Source: an uncultured Chlamydiae bacterium
GTDB taxonomy: Bacteria; Chlamydiota; Chlamydiia; Chlamydiales; SM23-39
DNA length: 64,000 nucleotides
Direction of reading: 5' to 3'
Assembly (NCBI GenBank): GCA_963828125.1
Contig: CAWHDP010000001.1
Location: 128,001 to 192,000 of the forward strand
A program made the translations under genes and the position numbers. A model generated the notes under the pieces. It did not search any database and was not told where the DNA came from. It saw only the letters and a list, made by a program, of their open reading frames with translations. This document shows, one piece after another, positions 16,409 through 22,063 of this stretch (within the stretch, counting starts at the first letter, position 1; every line of letters starts with the position of its first letter).

Positions 16409-17036
16409 CTAAAGGGCCAGCAACTTCTTTATAATGCGTTCAAAACTCAGCTTCTTTAACTTTCCAGACGGGTCCTGAGCCTCTAGCTTGGACCAATCAG
16501 CAGGAGAAGCTTGATTCACCCAATTAGACAATTGCTTTTGAAATGTCTGCAGCCATTTGGGGTGCTGCTGGGAGAGGAAAGCAAATTCAGCAAGCGCTCG
16601 ATCGGAAAAATCCCCCAACTGCGTGGTTACGTACCAAACCCCATAGAGATCCTTGAGCATCTTTGATGCGCTCTTCCGTCTGGTAAACGTAAGCCCCTTG
16701 TGGAAGATCCATGCTCCAGGTGAGACGACCTTTCCCGCTTCTCCTGAATAGGTTCGGAATTCTATTGTCGTTTGCAGGCTCAGCGTCAAGTAGCTCAAAG
16801 GCTGCTGCTTCATTGAGATATTTGGCGATGTTCTTTTTAGAGATCTCAGGAACCTTTCTGGGAATCAACGAGTCAATATCACGCGTTCCAACAGGGGGAT
16901 TTTCGAGCTTGGGATCGGCGAGGTAAAGCTTGTAAATGAAAAGAGCAAAACCGCCTCCGATAACAACGAACTCTCGCCATGGTCCCAGTGACTTTAAAAA
17001 TTCTGAAATGATTTTGTCTTCTTGAATCTGTTTCAT
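16409..17036 (-). pseudogene. Nucleotidyltransferase-fold toxin (AbiEii / GSU2403-like type IV TA), broken by an internal deletion/frameshift near 16805
   Basis: VVIGGGFA..GTRDID N-terminal motif in one frame; SPGAWIFHKG..KMLKDLY C-terminal motif in another. Confidence 0.75.
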
Positions 17037-17764
17037 TTGTTCTTAAGGCTTTTGTAGATGCGTTTCAGTTCAGGTGCTCGCTGGGCTATAAATTCTGCTT
17101 GTTCTTGTCCTCGCAGGGGAAAATGATAAAGATCTAAAAAGGTAAGGAGGAGGGGGCAAATATCAATTTCTTTGCCGTTCTTCCTATTTTGCTTGAGCAG
17201 CATTTTGTAGTAAGGCTCGATCAACAAAACCTCATACCCTCTTTCTTGTGGATCTAATTGCAGAGCGCTTTCTAATTTCGGTCTAATAGAAGGGTCAAGG
17301 ACATACAATTCTAATCCTTTTAGATTGGTATTCTTAAGCCCAAGCGCTTCGGCTGCTGAATGAAGAGCCAAGATCACGTTTTGTTCGAGCCCAGATTTCT
17401 TTAAAGCCTTGAACCACTCTGACTTTCCAGAAAGAGCGGAAGCGTAGGTTCTGATTTTGCATTTTTTCACGATGCTATAATGCTCTAGCCAGCTTTCTAG
17501 AAGTTCTTTTGGTTTGTTAAAGGAAAACCTCTTGGAGGTTCTGATTCCTTCAACTTGAAGAAGTCCTTTCAGTACCAGAATATTGAAAACACGTTGAACC
17601 AGACCGAGGCTTACCCCTGCTTCTTTAGCAACTTCTCTCAATGAGAAGTTTACTTTGAAAAGCCCTTCTCGAAGCAGCCAATCAAGCACGAGAGAGGACT
17701 TATCTGCATAGACATTCCCTTCTGCTGGATCTTCATTTGAACTTACTAGGAAACGACCTTTCAT
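17033..17764 (-). CDS. AbiEi-like type IV antitoxin / wHTH regulator
   Basis: SLREVAKEAGVSLGLVQRV HTH, KPKELLESW, LTFLDLY..RGQEQAEFI; GGAGG SD; ATGA overlap with the NTase. Confidence 0.8.
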   Translation of the reverse strand: MKGRFLVSSNEDPAEGNVYADKSSLVLDWLLREGLFKVNFSLREVAKEAGVSLGLVQRVFNILVLKGLLQVEGIRTSKRFSFNKPKELLESWLEHYSIVKKCKIRTYASALSGKSEWFKALKKSGLEQNVILALHSAAEALGLKNTNLKGLELYVLDPSIRPKLESALQLDPQERGYEVLLIEPYYKMLLKQNRKNGKEIDICPLLLTFLDLYHFPLRGQEQAEFIAQRAPELKRIYKSLKNK

Positions 17765-17776
17765 TGCGACCTCCTT

Positions 17777-17831
17777 CTGTTCATTATAATACACTGTTCA
17801 ATATATATTGAACAGACATAAATATTGAACA
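17777..17831. promoter_or_regulatory. Palindromic operator upstream of the abiEi-like gene
   Basis: Perfect 22-bp palindrome CTGTTCAATATATATTGAACAG (17794-17815) plus extra TGTTCA/TGAACA half-sites at 17778 and 17826. Confidence 0.75.
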
Positions 17832-18072
17832 AATGGACCCCAAGGAAGAGGTTTCTTAAAAATTCGTTACGAAACTTATTTTTAATGACTTAGAACAATT
17901 TTAACTCGAACTTTCGAAAATTCAGAATCAAATAATAAGGTTCATCCGACAAATGCGTACCTGGATTCGTGTAGGTGATAAAGTCGCAATTTAAAATATT
18001 CAATATCTCGAAACCCATAAGCCTGCCTTTTCATTGTCTTGATTTTGGCAAGTGCTCATAAAATTGAGGTAA

Positions 18073-18549
18073 TCACTCCAGAAATGGGACTCGGTTACCA
18101 ATCTGCATATGGACCCTTTTGCCGCAATGTTCACAAGGAAGTGACACACCATAAGTACACCTATTGCATTTGTCACAATGCCACTCTCTCCAATCTCTAC
18201 ATGTTTTGCAAATCTCACAATGCCAACTACAATTGTCTGCAGCTACATCGTTCCAGCAAAAAGAAAACCAATAAGTTTCTTGGCATTTAGAACAGTCATA
18301 TTCTCCCAGCAAGGATTTCAAGGGAATGCTTTCGCATTCACACGGCAGTAGTATTTCTTTGGATAATTCTTTATCTTTAAGGTCTTTGACGATACGAATA
18401 TTTTGTATAGCACACAATGCCAGATGTTCCGTGTCTTGTCCATTCAGAGGGTTATGGCAATTAACACAACGACATTTCTCAGTACATCCTTGACCGTTTT
18501 TTAGACAATCGCATCGATATGTGGAACAACTTGTTTTACATTTACACAT
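18073..18549 (-). CDS. Cysteine-rich passenger protein with N-terminal tesmin/TSO1-like CXC domain
   Basis: 24 Cys in 158 aa; CxCx3Cx4CxCx6Cx3CxCx2CxN followed by two HCxxCxxC units. Confidence 0.75.
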
Positions 18550-18639
18550 TTTCTAATTCGCTTCTGAAAGCTTGCTAAAACTGGATTATTCTAGCCCAGG
18601 AGGCAAGCATCTTGCAATGTGATTTCTCCTGGCAGCGAA

Positions 18640-20496
18640 TTACCCAACGAGAGGCAAACAATGTTCTACAGCTTCATTTGAGTTTCGTGCGGGTGGGTCT
18701 GCAGCAGCCGCTAGCGCTCGGTCAAAAATCACGGTTGCTAAACGAGGAATCGCATATTTCCCACGTACTCTGTCCTGTAAAAAGGACAAAAAATTGATCT
18801 CGAGTTTTCGGCATGTCTGTTTTAGACTTAAAAAGGTGTCTCTAACTTTCTGCCCCATTTCACTACGAGTTCCCCCAGAAATTTTCAGCTTTATTTTTGC
18901 CGCACGGGCACATGTTTCCGAACTGTTATTATGCAAAGGCGTCTCCGGCCTCCGCAGAACCATAAGTAGTTCTTGCTTTTTGTCACGAGTTTTCTCCAGT
19001 TGGTGATTCAAGGTAGGACTGGACGTTTTCTGCTGAAAAATGGCATCAAATTTTTTGCTTATGCTCTCTGCAACTTCTTGAGAGGGTGATTCTTTATAGG
19101 TTTTAAGGTCTTGATAGATATCCCATATTTGCTCTCTGACTTGTTCCAATTCAGATCGAGACTTGTCAGTTGTCATGAGGAGCTTTCTATAGTGCCTATC
19201 TTCATGAATCCAGCATAGCGAATGTTGAAATACATAAAACTGCCCTGCATCATCACTATGCACACCCAGTTCGCGTGAGATTCCATTTTGTATCACAGAT
19301 GCATACAAAGCTGCTTCTGTGAGAAAACGAACTTCTGATTCCTTCGTAACATTACGTTCCCTTAAAAATTGCTCCCATTCTGCGAGTGTTGCAAATTTGC
19401 TATTTAAGGACAGAGAGACATAGCCAGGCAGATACTCAGCAACGTTCACATGTGACAGATATTCCAGGGTATCTTGATTGATCACATATTCTTCTTTTCC
19501 ATTTTGAAGCAATTGGAGAAAATTTTTCCGGCTCTTACTTTCTGTCGTTGTAAAAATACTGAACCAACGATTCCCTATGACCGTTGTGTACTGATTTTGC
19601 CCATTATGCCGACCGCCTGTATCGTCCACTTGCACCTGGTTTTCTACACTTGTGGCAGCAAGCATTAGCTCTGCAGCTTCTTCAATGAAAGGGTTCTTGT
19701 TCTCAATTAAAATATTGTTCAGTTGGCCTGCGGAAATCAAAATACCGATAGCGCGTAGCTGGTCTAATAGAAGATGCTCTGTAACACGGCAAGCATGGTA
19801 TTGGTGAAGGATGTAAGTCACCAATTCTGGGCCATAGTGCCCATGGATATCTTTAGGGAGTTGCCCTGTTACGTAAGTGCCATCAGGTAGTTCCCATCGA
19901 GCCAATTTGTATTGGATATTGTGTGGTTTAAGGAGGATGTCTTGCACTGTATAATGGCAATAACCTTTGAATTTAGCGCCATCCGGAATATTTTCAGGCT
20001 GAATTTCCAATTTGGTGTGGATTTCTAGTACTGTTTTTTTCTTTTTACGTTTCTTGCCTCTTGGTTGCCCAGGTTTTCCAATTCTCCTAATATTTTTGAT
20101 CATCAGTCTAGCTAATCGAGAAAGTTCAACTGTTCGTTCTTGCAACAAAGGTGAAGTGATTATGAAAAAATCGCGAGACGACAATGAAACATCAAAACTC
20201 GTTGTGAATTGCGCGGGTGAAATGAACAAAACGCGCATCTCGTGGACATCGATGAGGCTAATTCGTTTATATAGATCGGGCTTGTTCTTTTTCCCTTCCA
20301 GGTTATTGGGGGGAATGTCCGGTTTTGGCTTCTGTCCTTTGAGGCGAGCAATTTCATCTTTGAGTTGCTGGATCAGTTCTTTTTGTGCAGCCAAGGCATT
20401 GGTCATTGTATCAATTTGTTGACGGAGTTGGAAGTTTTCGTTAGAAAGCTGATCGATAAGAGAAGAGGAAATTTGAACTTTTGAGGAATCTTGCAT
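18640..20496 (-). CDS. IS66-like DDE transposase
   Basis: N-terminal coiled coil, VQVDDTG, HSDDAGQF, LCWIHEDR, PLHNNSSE, KISGGTRS. Confidence 0.9.
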   Translation of the reverse strand: MQDSSKVQISSSLIDQLSNENFQLRQQIDTMTNALAAQKELIQQLKDEIARLKGQKPKPDIPPNNLEGKKNKPDLYKRISLIDVHEMRVLFISPAQFTTSFDVSLSSRDFFIITSPLLQERTVELSRLARLMIKNIRRIGKPGQPRGKKRKKKKTVLEIHTKLEIQPENIPDGAKFKGYCHYTVQDILLKPHNIQYKLARWELPDGTYVTGQLPKDIHGHYGPELVTYILHQYHACRVTEHLLLDQLRAIGILISAGQLNNILIENKNPFIEEAAELMLAATSVENQVQVDDTGGRHNGQNQYTTVIGNRWFSIFTTTESKSRKNFLQLLQNGKEEYVINQDTLEYLSHVNVAEYLPGYVSLSLNSKFATLAEWEQFLRERNVTKESEVRFLTEAALYASVIQNGISRELGVHSDDAGQFYVFQHSLCWIHEDRHYRKLLMTTDKSRSELEQVREQIWDIYQDLKTYKESPSQEVAESISKKFDAIFQQKTSSPTLNHQLEKTRDKKQELLMVLRRPETPLHNNSSETCARAAKIKLKISGGTRSEMGQKVRDTFLSLKQTCRKLEINFLSFLQDRVRGKYAIPRLATVIFDRALAAAADPPARNSNEAVEHCLPLVG

Positions 20497-22063
20497 TTGT
20501 GCATGCCTTGTATGGCTGGATACAATAGCAAATGTTTAGAAAACAATCACCTAAATTTTTTATTCAACGAACACAGATTAGACGGTGAAAAACAGTGCCC
20601 ATGAAATCGAGGTAATCGGGGCCCCGCTTCGGGGTGATTACCTCAGTTTTATGAGCAGTTGCTGATTTTGTTGTTTATGCCTTCTGCTGCGGCGTTCGAG
20701 ATTCGATGTTTGAAATAGTTCAATAACCCCGTCTTGTATTGGTGTAATGTTTTGACCACTCGTCTTAGCGGTTTGAGCCCTGTTGCCAAAGCATCGACTC
20801 CCCATCTGACGAGAAAATGTTCCGCCTCCTCTACAGAGTCTTTCTCCCAGAAAAGTTGGAATTGCTCCTTCAGGGAATGTGCCAAAAACAAGGGTTCATT
20901 TACAGCCAATAAGGCGCCCAATCGTGTTTGGTTTTCTAGATCCAAGTTGTCATAATTCGTTAGGAATAAAAACCGACTGCCCTTCAGTACTTTTGCATCG
21001 GCCCCACTCAAGTTTTGCTGTTGATCTTTGCGCACCTCGTCCAGGGCTTTATTCAATAAAGCCGTCACATGAAAATGATCAAATACCACATCTACGTTCG
21101 GCAAAAACTCTTGTGCTGCTGGGTAGTACGATTTGCTCATGTCCATAGCGATTGCTTTTAACTTTGGTGCGTGCTTTGCCAGTTTCTTGAAAAAGGGAGC
21201 TACCGCCTCTATAGTTCTACCCTCTACAGCGTGAATAATTCTCCCCGACCGTAGATCTGTGAAAACGGTCATGTATTCATGCCCTTTCCGTATGCTGAAT
21301 TCATCGACGGTAATGTATTCCAAATCTTCTAGAGGAATTGTTTTATAGAGAGCAGTCAATTTCTCTTTGTGGATCCTCTTCACGACATTCCAGCTAATTT
21401 TTAGAAATCGAGAGACATCCAAGAGAGTGCTAAAATGCAAAAGATCCAGCACGTGTGCTATCATGGAGCGCACCATTCGGAATTTGCCTTTCATAAAAGG
21501 CAATCGAGGCCACCATTTATGGCCACATTGAGGACAGGCTACTCGATGTAGCAGCACGTTTAGAAAACAGGGCTTGCCGCCAAACGGCACCATTTTAAAC
21601 TGCCGCTTTTTTTGTCCCTTGAAGATTGTGCGCGTACAGCCACATTTGCATTGAGATGGATCGACCATTATAGCGTGGATCGTAATCGCCCCCGCTTCAA
21701 ATTTGGTAGATTGGTATTGAACTCCGCTGATTCCGTATGCATGATACAAGAGAGAAGTAGACATAGAAGAAGCCTCCCGTGAGGGTGTTTGTTCAAGCTC
21801 CTTTTATATGTCTGCTTCTTTTGTTTCTACCCGCCAGTCAAGACCTTCTAGAAATCACAACGCGCTGAATAATCAATACTTATAAAAATCTAAGGACTTA
21901 ATGCCTTTCCCCTCTACAGGTACTCATTTGTCGGATGAACCAATAATAATTTGAAAAAGCAAATTGTGGGTTAAAAAAAGTATCCTTGAGAATTCCAATA
22001 CACCCAATCGTTCAAAGCTTGTTTGGTTGTATCAACAACGTTCAAGCCTTTAAGCTGCTTTAG

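Follow-up and report, generated by a model that had tools for sequence, protein, structure and literature searches.

A CXC zinc-cluster gene carried as cargo by an IS66-type transporter element of a chlamydial bacterium, and its possible role against invading DNA

Why should a mobile element of a chlamydial bacterium carry, besides its transposase, a gene for a small zinc-cluster protein, and who benefits from it? The locus lies in a stretch of 64,000 nucleotides from an uncultured Chlamydiae bacterium (assembly GCA_963828125.1, contig CAWHDP010000001.1, positions 128,001 to 192,000), which is called the window here and to which all positions refer unless stated otherwise. The element is an IS66-type insertion sequence (IS), and its second gene, the passenger, encodes a protein of 158 amino acids (aa) that opens with a CXC domain; an earlier note had described this gene as eukaryote-type and tesmin-like. 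Our verdict is that the vehicle is a known IS type and that the cargo family is undescribed. As to function, our best guess, to which we give somewhat less than an even chance, is a nucleic-acid-binding factor against invading DNA that acts either on its own or next to BREX, Wadjet and restriction systems.

The passenger contains 24 Cys residues and consists of a CXC domain (residues 2–33, including K3 and R12), a short helical linker, a zinc (Zn) ribbon with stacked CCHC fingers (residues ~46–142) and a tail. In an alignment of 119 sequences (the window protein and 118 of the 120 homologues listed), the motif CxCx3Cx4CxCx6Cx3CxCx2CxN was present in 117; eight Cys ligands and N33 are invariant, and C28 is kept in at least 90%. 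This spacing, with a first loop one residue shorter than in the second CXC domain of LIN54, and the cysteine count had been pointed out correctly before. All 119 members match the Pfam TCR profile at E ≤ 0.1 (best, 8.9e-6) and 71 match Pfam MSL2-CXC at the same limit, the window protein not being among the latter. The best PDB profile match of the passenger is LIN54 (5fd3; E 2.6e-4), onto which the predicted model superposes with a root-mean-square deviation (rmsd) of 0.8 Å over 33 columns (probability 0.90, E 1.3). R12, which is Arg in 114 of the 119 sequences and His in 5, aligns with R543 of MSL2, described in the available text of PMC4248295 as the sole base-reading residue of that CXC domain; LIN54, according to the available text of PMC4974476, has tandem CXC domains with Tyr readers. 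Profile, predicted structure and key residue together support the view that the domain is truly CXC-like: the proposed CXC assignment stands on the LIN54 profile and superposition, and falls short at the Pfam TCR cut-off (21.5 against 23.5 bits, E 2.9e-4).

The label tesmin-like, on the other hand, has to be replaced, because a single domain with an Arg reader, as opposed to tandem domains with Tyr readers, makes the passenger CXC MSL2-like as judged from its sequence. With MSL2 it shares the single CXC, nine Cys and the Asn, the Arg before the fourth Cys and a basic residue after the first; it differs in its three-residue first loop, in the helical linker, Zn ribbon and CCHC stack that follow, in the absence of a RING domain from the prokaryotic protein, and in that its DNA binding is a prediction. 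With the LIN54/tesmin/TSO1 type of CRC domain it has in common, besides the profile match and superposition, the nine-Cys CXC with terminal Asn, and differs in having one CXC and not two, Arg and not Tyr, and a score below the Pfam cut-off. One bacterial member, from Desulfonema limicola, has already been named automatically "CRC domain-containing protein".

The predicted model of the passenger is confident (predicted local distance difference test score, pLDDT, 90.5), with the final tail below 50. W109, W120 and Y133 are invariant in the 119 sequences and Y84, Y93, W94, F97, W99 and W123 nearly so, as are R-D-W-R-E-W-H and Y-G residues in the C-terminal CCHC stack. The C-terminal fingers weakly resemble those of ZCCHC4 and DHHC proteins (Foldseek E 0.04; VIA Z 3.2–3.5; rmsd 5.0 over 65 residues): the predicted model, like these, has stacked two-stranded Zn fingers with CxxC...HCxxC spacing, whereas the match is weak (rmsd 5–6) and the passenger has no methyltransferase or palmitoyltransferase part. 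The available text of PMC6834594 reports that the CCHC domain of ZCCHC4 contributes to RNA binding. Counting ligands, we infer about seven Zn per protein, namely a Zn3Cys9 CXC cluster and about four Cys/His sites, and the passenger probably binds nucleic acid. Because close relatives stop after residue 143 or slightly later, the remaining residues, predicted to be disordered, are a read-through tail; the stop codon within the inverted repeat, which the earlier note had recorded, is thus true of the window copy and not a trait of the family.

The anatomy of the element (Table 1) is in our view nearly certain. The imperfect inverted repeats (IRs) at 18048–18099 and 20611–20662 are 52 nt long and 79% complementary, both starting with GCAA, and the 8-bp duplication TGATTTTG borders the element on both sides; the full bounding of the element and its single transposase without helper genes, as previously described, were both confirmed. 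Its only long open reading frames (ORFs) are the transposase and the passenger, the latter downstream on the same strand after a gap of 90 bp; the remaining ORFs listed within it are short and in alternative frames. The transposase matches Pfam DDE_Tnp_IS66 (PF03050; E 1.5e-12; 48 bits, cut-off 23.1), and its NCBIfam IS66 score (NF033517) is 104, below the cut-off of 180. An N-terminal insert of ~50 aa, partly hydrophobic (20080–20280), is missing in most relatives and is aligned in two (L101 and L109).

The genome (2.37 Mb, 2 contigs) contains 8 full copies of the element with 99.88–100% identity, in agreement with the mobile cassette that had been proposed, and 3 partial ends. Perfect 8-bp target-site duplications (TSDs), all different, flank 5 of the 8 copies and none flanks the other 3; all 8 lie in low-GC stretches (flank GC 0.40–0.45, genome median 0.50). 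The window copy sits inside an ISL3 element, and the same ISL3 site is found empty 7 times elsewhere in the genome; the empty-site joint (18039 to 20663) is present also in sequencing runs X6 and X11 of other studies. Passenger pieces with 0–7 differences occur in runs X6, X8 and X11, where no piece spans both passenger and transposase. The eight sites and the empty sites point to transposition, and on these sequence grounds the element is, as we read it, real and recently active: a single-ORF IS66 transporter of the ISBst12 type has captured the gene and carried it to 8 sites. A 72-bp element resembling a miniature inverted-repeat transposable element (MITE) at G000:C2:1098594-1098665 consists of the two ends of the IS and has its own 8-bp TSD.

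By the usual definition, a transporter IS holds within its IRs a passenger that is dispensable for transposition, and the relatives of the window element indicate that the present passenger would be so too. A related transposase was found in 23 of 399 other genomes scored within the phylum, and a passenger match in none of the 28 related-transposase loci from other genomes, some of which stop at contig edges. Complete related elements have the same ends, measure 1.70–1.98 kb and contain the transposase only, with perfect TSDs in L090, L093, L095 and L114. Because these elements lack the passenger and the transposase was found at none of the 160 distant homologue loci described below, the passenger is cargo on an ordinary backbone and not a dedicated helper. 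The ISBst12 group is characterized in the available text of PMC12898284 by a single ORF, a near-identical start of the terminal inverted repeat (TIR) and an 8-bp duplication. The window element resembles its member ISDge4, as far as described there, in the single IS66-type transposase, the imperfect TIRs and the 8-bp duplication (TIR start GTAACTGCTCAGCA in ISDge4 and GCAACTGCTCATAA here, resembling the ISBst12 start GTAACTGCTCA), and is unlike it in the passenger after the transposase, the GCAA ends and the transposase insert. Among other genomes, the passenger turned up in 0 of 102 from the host's family and in 1 of 399 sampled from the phylum. A truncated, 80%-identical homologue in a genome of another family (G293, locus L200) ends ~50 bp from the same IR, and the link between passenger and IS66 is therefore older than the present genome. 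This homologue (L200:1098-1494) is cut at its 5' side by an apparent transposase start, which we take to be of IS21 type, and a reverse-transcriptase-like fragment lies nearby on the opposite strand.

The homology search gave 280 homologues at E ≤ 0.001, and we examined the loci of the best 80 of 120 confirmed genome homologues and the best 80 of 201 metagenome homologues, representing 62 lineages at 80% identity. The 80 genome loci are bacterial in 67 cases, archaeal in 12 and unassigned in 1, and the description eukaryote-type is misleading: the closest family is prokaryotic. Its members come mainly from Chloroflexota, Desulfobacterota, methanogenic and anaerobic methanotrophic (ANME) archaea, Bacteroidota and Planctomycetota, which are largely free-living groups. 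The window transposase or its IR was found in 0 of the 80 genome and 0 of the 80 metagenome loci (at least 2 kb upstream being available in 59 and 26, respectively), and on these counts a dedicated IS66 helper was rejected. A viral or plasmid origin was also rejected, no relative at E ≤ 0.001 being found in viral contigs, PLSDB, PHROGs or BFVD.

In 26 of the 160 loci an ISKra4-like transposase lies directly downstream of the CXC gene, and in 134 neither transposase is present. Both IRs surround the two genes in 16 ISKra4-like loci (2.0–2.5 kb) and only the left IR was found in 3 more; the elements at L027:7-2272, L030:4906-7191 and related loci are mostly 2.2–2.3 kb long, with the CXC gene upstream of the transposase. 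A perfect TSD was seen at 0 of 14 such elements, while 3 of the 14 agree at 7–8 of 9 bases, and no passenger-free ISKra4 relative was found in 400 genomes. The available part of PMC3942029 describes the ends of ISKra4 and reports four ISKra4 elements that carry genes without a known function; neither our passenger nor our element appeared in its supplements when searched for IR words and for cysteine or zinc, one supplement being outside the search and another covered in part. Our elements resemble those in carrying a passenger within the IRs and differ in that integrons and two IS types not related to each other share one cargo family. The gene is thus carried by two vehicles, IS66 and ISKra4. 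Two independent captures are not established: the IS66-borne and ISKra4-borne genes form separate starred clades in the tree, and their sister relation was not rejected (approximately unbiased test, p 0.65). The left flank of L031, a 2.6-kb contig in an archaeal bin, is the same as that of the bacterial L030; this contig is possibly misbinned and is therefore not counted as evidence of cross-domain transfer.

A third setting is the integron cassette. Several lineages share only a unit of ~530–630 bp between differing flanks, bounded by attC-like sites, and in L017, L052, L128 and L147 the first bases of the downstream site are the exact complement of the upstream core. A profile built from 9 training sites in 3 lineages finds same-strand arrays of 5 (L052), 4 (L188) and 3 (L017) sites as well as sites in a held-out lineage (L006, L126, L128), and yields 42 sites over 1.87 Mb, the 9 used for training included, as against 3 in 0.43 Mb of control sequence. 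Cruder scans were unconvincing: the alignment of the sites was poor, three scans gave little or no enrichment (8/152 against 3/152; 6.6 against 5.6 per 100 kb), and when thresholds were raised to the highest control value none but the training lineages came through. An integron integrase scored over its cut-off in 3 of 5 genomes tested. We count attC-flanked cassettes in at least four lineages; the attC scan found no remnant at the window gene. Because the gene recurs in other vehicles, its presence in the window element is not a one-off capture; most homologues are nevertheless unlinked to this IS.

Other homologues lie in defence operons. The CXC gene is directly upstream of pglZ at 7 loci of one Methanosarcinales lineage, behind a 120-aa gene preceded by pglX where the contig reaches, and in L074 it is flanked by jetB and jetC of Wadjet; further loci adjoin type I, II and III restriction genes, DarTG, Septu and toxin-antitoxin genes. 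The 120-aa gene (L025:1936-2298) is unannotated and has no Pfam or NCBIfam match; in 17 loci of the Methanosarcinales lineage it immediately precedes the CXC gene, and in the deltaproteobacterial locus L010 it follows it. No conserved partner gene was found over the 62 lineages. Neighbours without a known function, of the pRiA4 ORF3, TPR and DUF1186/HEAT types, recur, each in two lineages (L010, L019, L041, L042, L062, L064, L144). A possible association with the SEC-C motif was looked for; the motif was seen in 0 of 160 loci and likewise in neither controls nor genome, and is uninformative. The passenger is under purifying selection, with a ratio of nonsynonymous to synonymous divergence (dN/dS) of about 0.09 (median 0.09 in ISKra4-borne copies, 20 of 66 pairs being unsaturated; dN 0.08 and dS 0.97 between the window passenger and L200). 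A gene that needs no partner, is under purifying selection and turns up in two types of IS, in cassettes and within defence operons should confer a portable benefit.

In our tentative reading as a factor against invading DNA, the passenger would be transcribed from a weak internal promoter, the candidate for which is not above chance, or together with the transposase, and its product would be a cytoplasmic, non-enzymatic protein folded round about seven Zn. The CXC domain would grip duplex DNA as MSL2 does, with Arg12 in the minor groove and Lys3 on the major-groove side, and the CCHC stack may bind a second ligand, nucleic acid or protein, via its RDWREWH and YG residues. The protein would act by binding or sensing foreign nucleic acid and not by catalysis, and the gene would be retained on mobile vehicles for its benefit to the cell and not for any need of the transposase. 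In the available text of a preprint, 18% of the tested integron cassettes of unknown function were anti-phage (bioRxiv 10.1101/2024.07.02.601686). The reading was checked by a paired comparison within the same genomes, 20 of the 30 opened having given control stretches of at least 8 kb. It weighs against the reading, a PADLOC match at E ≤ 1e-15 being found at 9/20 homologue loci and 9/20 controls; a post-hoc limitation to core restriction-modification, BREX, Septu and DarTG genes gave 5/20 loci against 1/20 controls. Further points on the same side are that many of the 62 lineages have the gene among metabolic genes without a conserved partner, that BREX accounts for a single lineage and Wadjet for a single locus, that two members scanned (P0001 and P0050) matched none of the PADLOC 2.0 families at E ≤ 1e-8, and that integron cassettes carry non-defence genes as well. 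Nor is a catalytic or membrane effector domain evident in the passenger, and in the fold comparison residues 40–145 gave no solved chain at Z ≥ 5 and no match at E ≤ 0.001; finally, the host is probably an intracellular bacterium, for which phage pressure may be lower.

The roles listed earlier, from which defence, the one that agrees best with the contexts of the gene, was missing, were a transposition regulator, a metal buffer and a host-directed effector; we disfavour the first and the last and find the second weak. A metallothionein-like buffer of metals or thiols, selected under metal or redox stress, would suit 24 Cys in 158 aa, hosts that are, going by record titles, largely sediment and groundwater lineages, and a gene standing alone with no need of a partner. 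Metallothioneins, however, are Cys-rich chains almost without aromatic residues or regular fold, from which the passenger departs in its conserved aromatics and confidently folded model; the (near-)invariant Trp, Tyr, Phe, Arg, Asp and Glu would be superfluous in a pure chelator, R12 is conserved, and no metal-resistance neighbours recur among 139 flanking genes, so that we regard this role as unlikely. Much the same small probability attaches to a general nucleic-acid-binding regulator of transcription or RNA, a drifting accessory gene with no defence link: eukaryotic CXC domains read promoters and chromatin, the neighbourhoods are variable and often metabolic, and raw defence enrichment was absent from the paired comparison, but no regulated neighbour is conserved, and cassettes and defence-operon positions point to a context-independent phenotype.

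A factor serving the element itself, as regulator, target selector or anti-silencing protein in place of the missing TnpA and TnpB, might explain why the gene is enclosed by the ends of two IS types that are not related, has a DNA-binding signature and moves with 8 copies that are all in low-GC stretches, and the possible sisterhood of the IS66- and ISKra4-borne genes agrees with it. Against this, single-ORF relatives with the same ends have TSDs without a passenger, the ISBst12 group is single-ORF by definition (PMC12898284), and the 134 loci have neither transposase; since IS66 and ISKra4 resemble each other neither in transposase nor in ends, one factor specifically helping both is improbable, and the role as a whole seems to us slightly less probable than the two before. 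Very unlikely, in our view, is an effector that mimics eukaryotic CXC proteins in a protist nucleus: the bacterium is probably an environmental chlamydia (it has a match to DUF687, presumably a chlamydia-associated family) and the whole module occurs in eukaryotes, yet the protein opens directly with the folded CXC (Met1-Cys2) without a leader, the gene is nearly absent from the host's family and phylum as counted above, and its family lives mostly in Chloroflexota, Desulfobacterota and other largely free-living groups.

Longer eukaryotic proteins match most or all of the module near their C-terminus. Among 22 picked from at least 150 profile-search matches listed, five have named sources (Globisporangium, Thraustotheca, Ancoracysta, Exaiptasia and Porites) and the others were taken to be eukaryotic; the Globisporangium protein aligns with the profile over 143 columns (probability 99.3). 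Fusion partners of the module include RING, TRF2/HOY1 PH-like and HMG domains, the reader Arg is kept in 17 of the 22, and a CaaX-like terminus is present in 16 of 22 against 2 of 119 prokaryotic sequences. In P0186, P0253, P0272, P0181 and P0229 the full module of 150 aa sits close to the C-terminus, accompanied by RING or TRF2/HOY1 PH-like domains and often by a CaaX-like end; in fungal- or rotifer-like forms of 210–230 aa the middle ribbon is replaced, and a rotifer cluster at 0.90 among the atlas neighbours is a lead only. No direction of transfer can be read from the tree, which has no root and supports the split of the eukaryotes at 72. CXC domains are known in eukaryotes as promoter or chromatin readers, according to the available text of PMC4248295 and PMC4974476.

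Table 1. Positions of the element and its parts in the window
Feature	Position	Strand	Remarks
IS66-type transporter element	18048–20662		2,615 bp
Left TSD copy	18040–18047	+	8 bp, TGATTTTG
Right TSD copy	20663–20670	+	8 bp
Terminal inverted repeat, passenger end	18048–18099		overlaps last passenger codons and stop
Terminal inverted repeat, transposase end	20594–20662		internal second IR copy forming a hairpin; source of the 72-bp MITE-like element
Passenger gene	18073–18549	-	158 aa
CXC coding stretch, Cys2–Asn33	18451–18546	-	Pfam TCR profile and LIN54 superposition
Candidate sigma70-like promoter	18588–18617	-	in the 90-bp transposase–passenger gap; weak, 7 sites against 5.6 expected
IS66-type (TnpC-like) transposase	18640–20496	-	618 aa; intact in 8/8 copies
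ISL3 transposase gene, broken close to the 3' end by the inserted element	20663–21764	-	last codons resume left of 18040

Positions 1–29000 of the window, which include the element, form a low-GC island (mostly 0.36–0.45, against ~0.50 past its end). It also holds two genes of the RHS/YD-repeat kind, pieces of transposases of the IS701, ISL3 and ISAzo13 types, a gene resembling pRiA4 ORF3 and one for a histidine/aromatic ammonia-lyase. An AbiEi-like antitoxin gene, followed by an apparently interrupted nucleotidyltransferase-like gene, occupies 16409–17794.

Our literature searches, ISfinder and the main IS reviews being outside them so that a prior listing is possible, found no paper on a prokaryotic or mobile CXC, and the passenger family is not named over cut-off by any model of Pfam, NCBIfam, PHROG or PADLOC. 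A wider picture, which we hold to be less likely than not, is that CXC, ribbon and CCHC stack form an unreported pan-domain module: in prokaryotes a lone anti-phage or anti-plasmid factor that senses nucleic acid, travels with integrons and with transporters of the IS66 and ISKra4 kinds, and has entered operons of BREX and Wadjet; in eukaryotes kept whole with RING or PH-like fusions, often with CaaX. The chromatin CXC might then have come from prokaryotes, and the module might be an immune one common to both. That the family recurs with IS66, with ISKra4, in integron cassettes and inside defence operons implies a context-free, selectable phenotype. A domain of dosage compensation and the cell cycle is now tied to bacteria and archaea, and an unannotated module of 150 aa is exposed in protists, oomycetes and corals.

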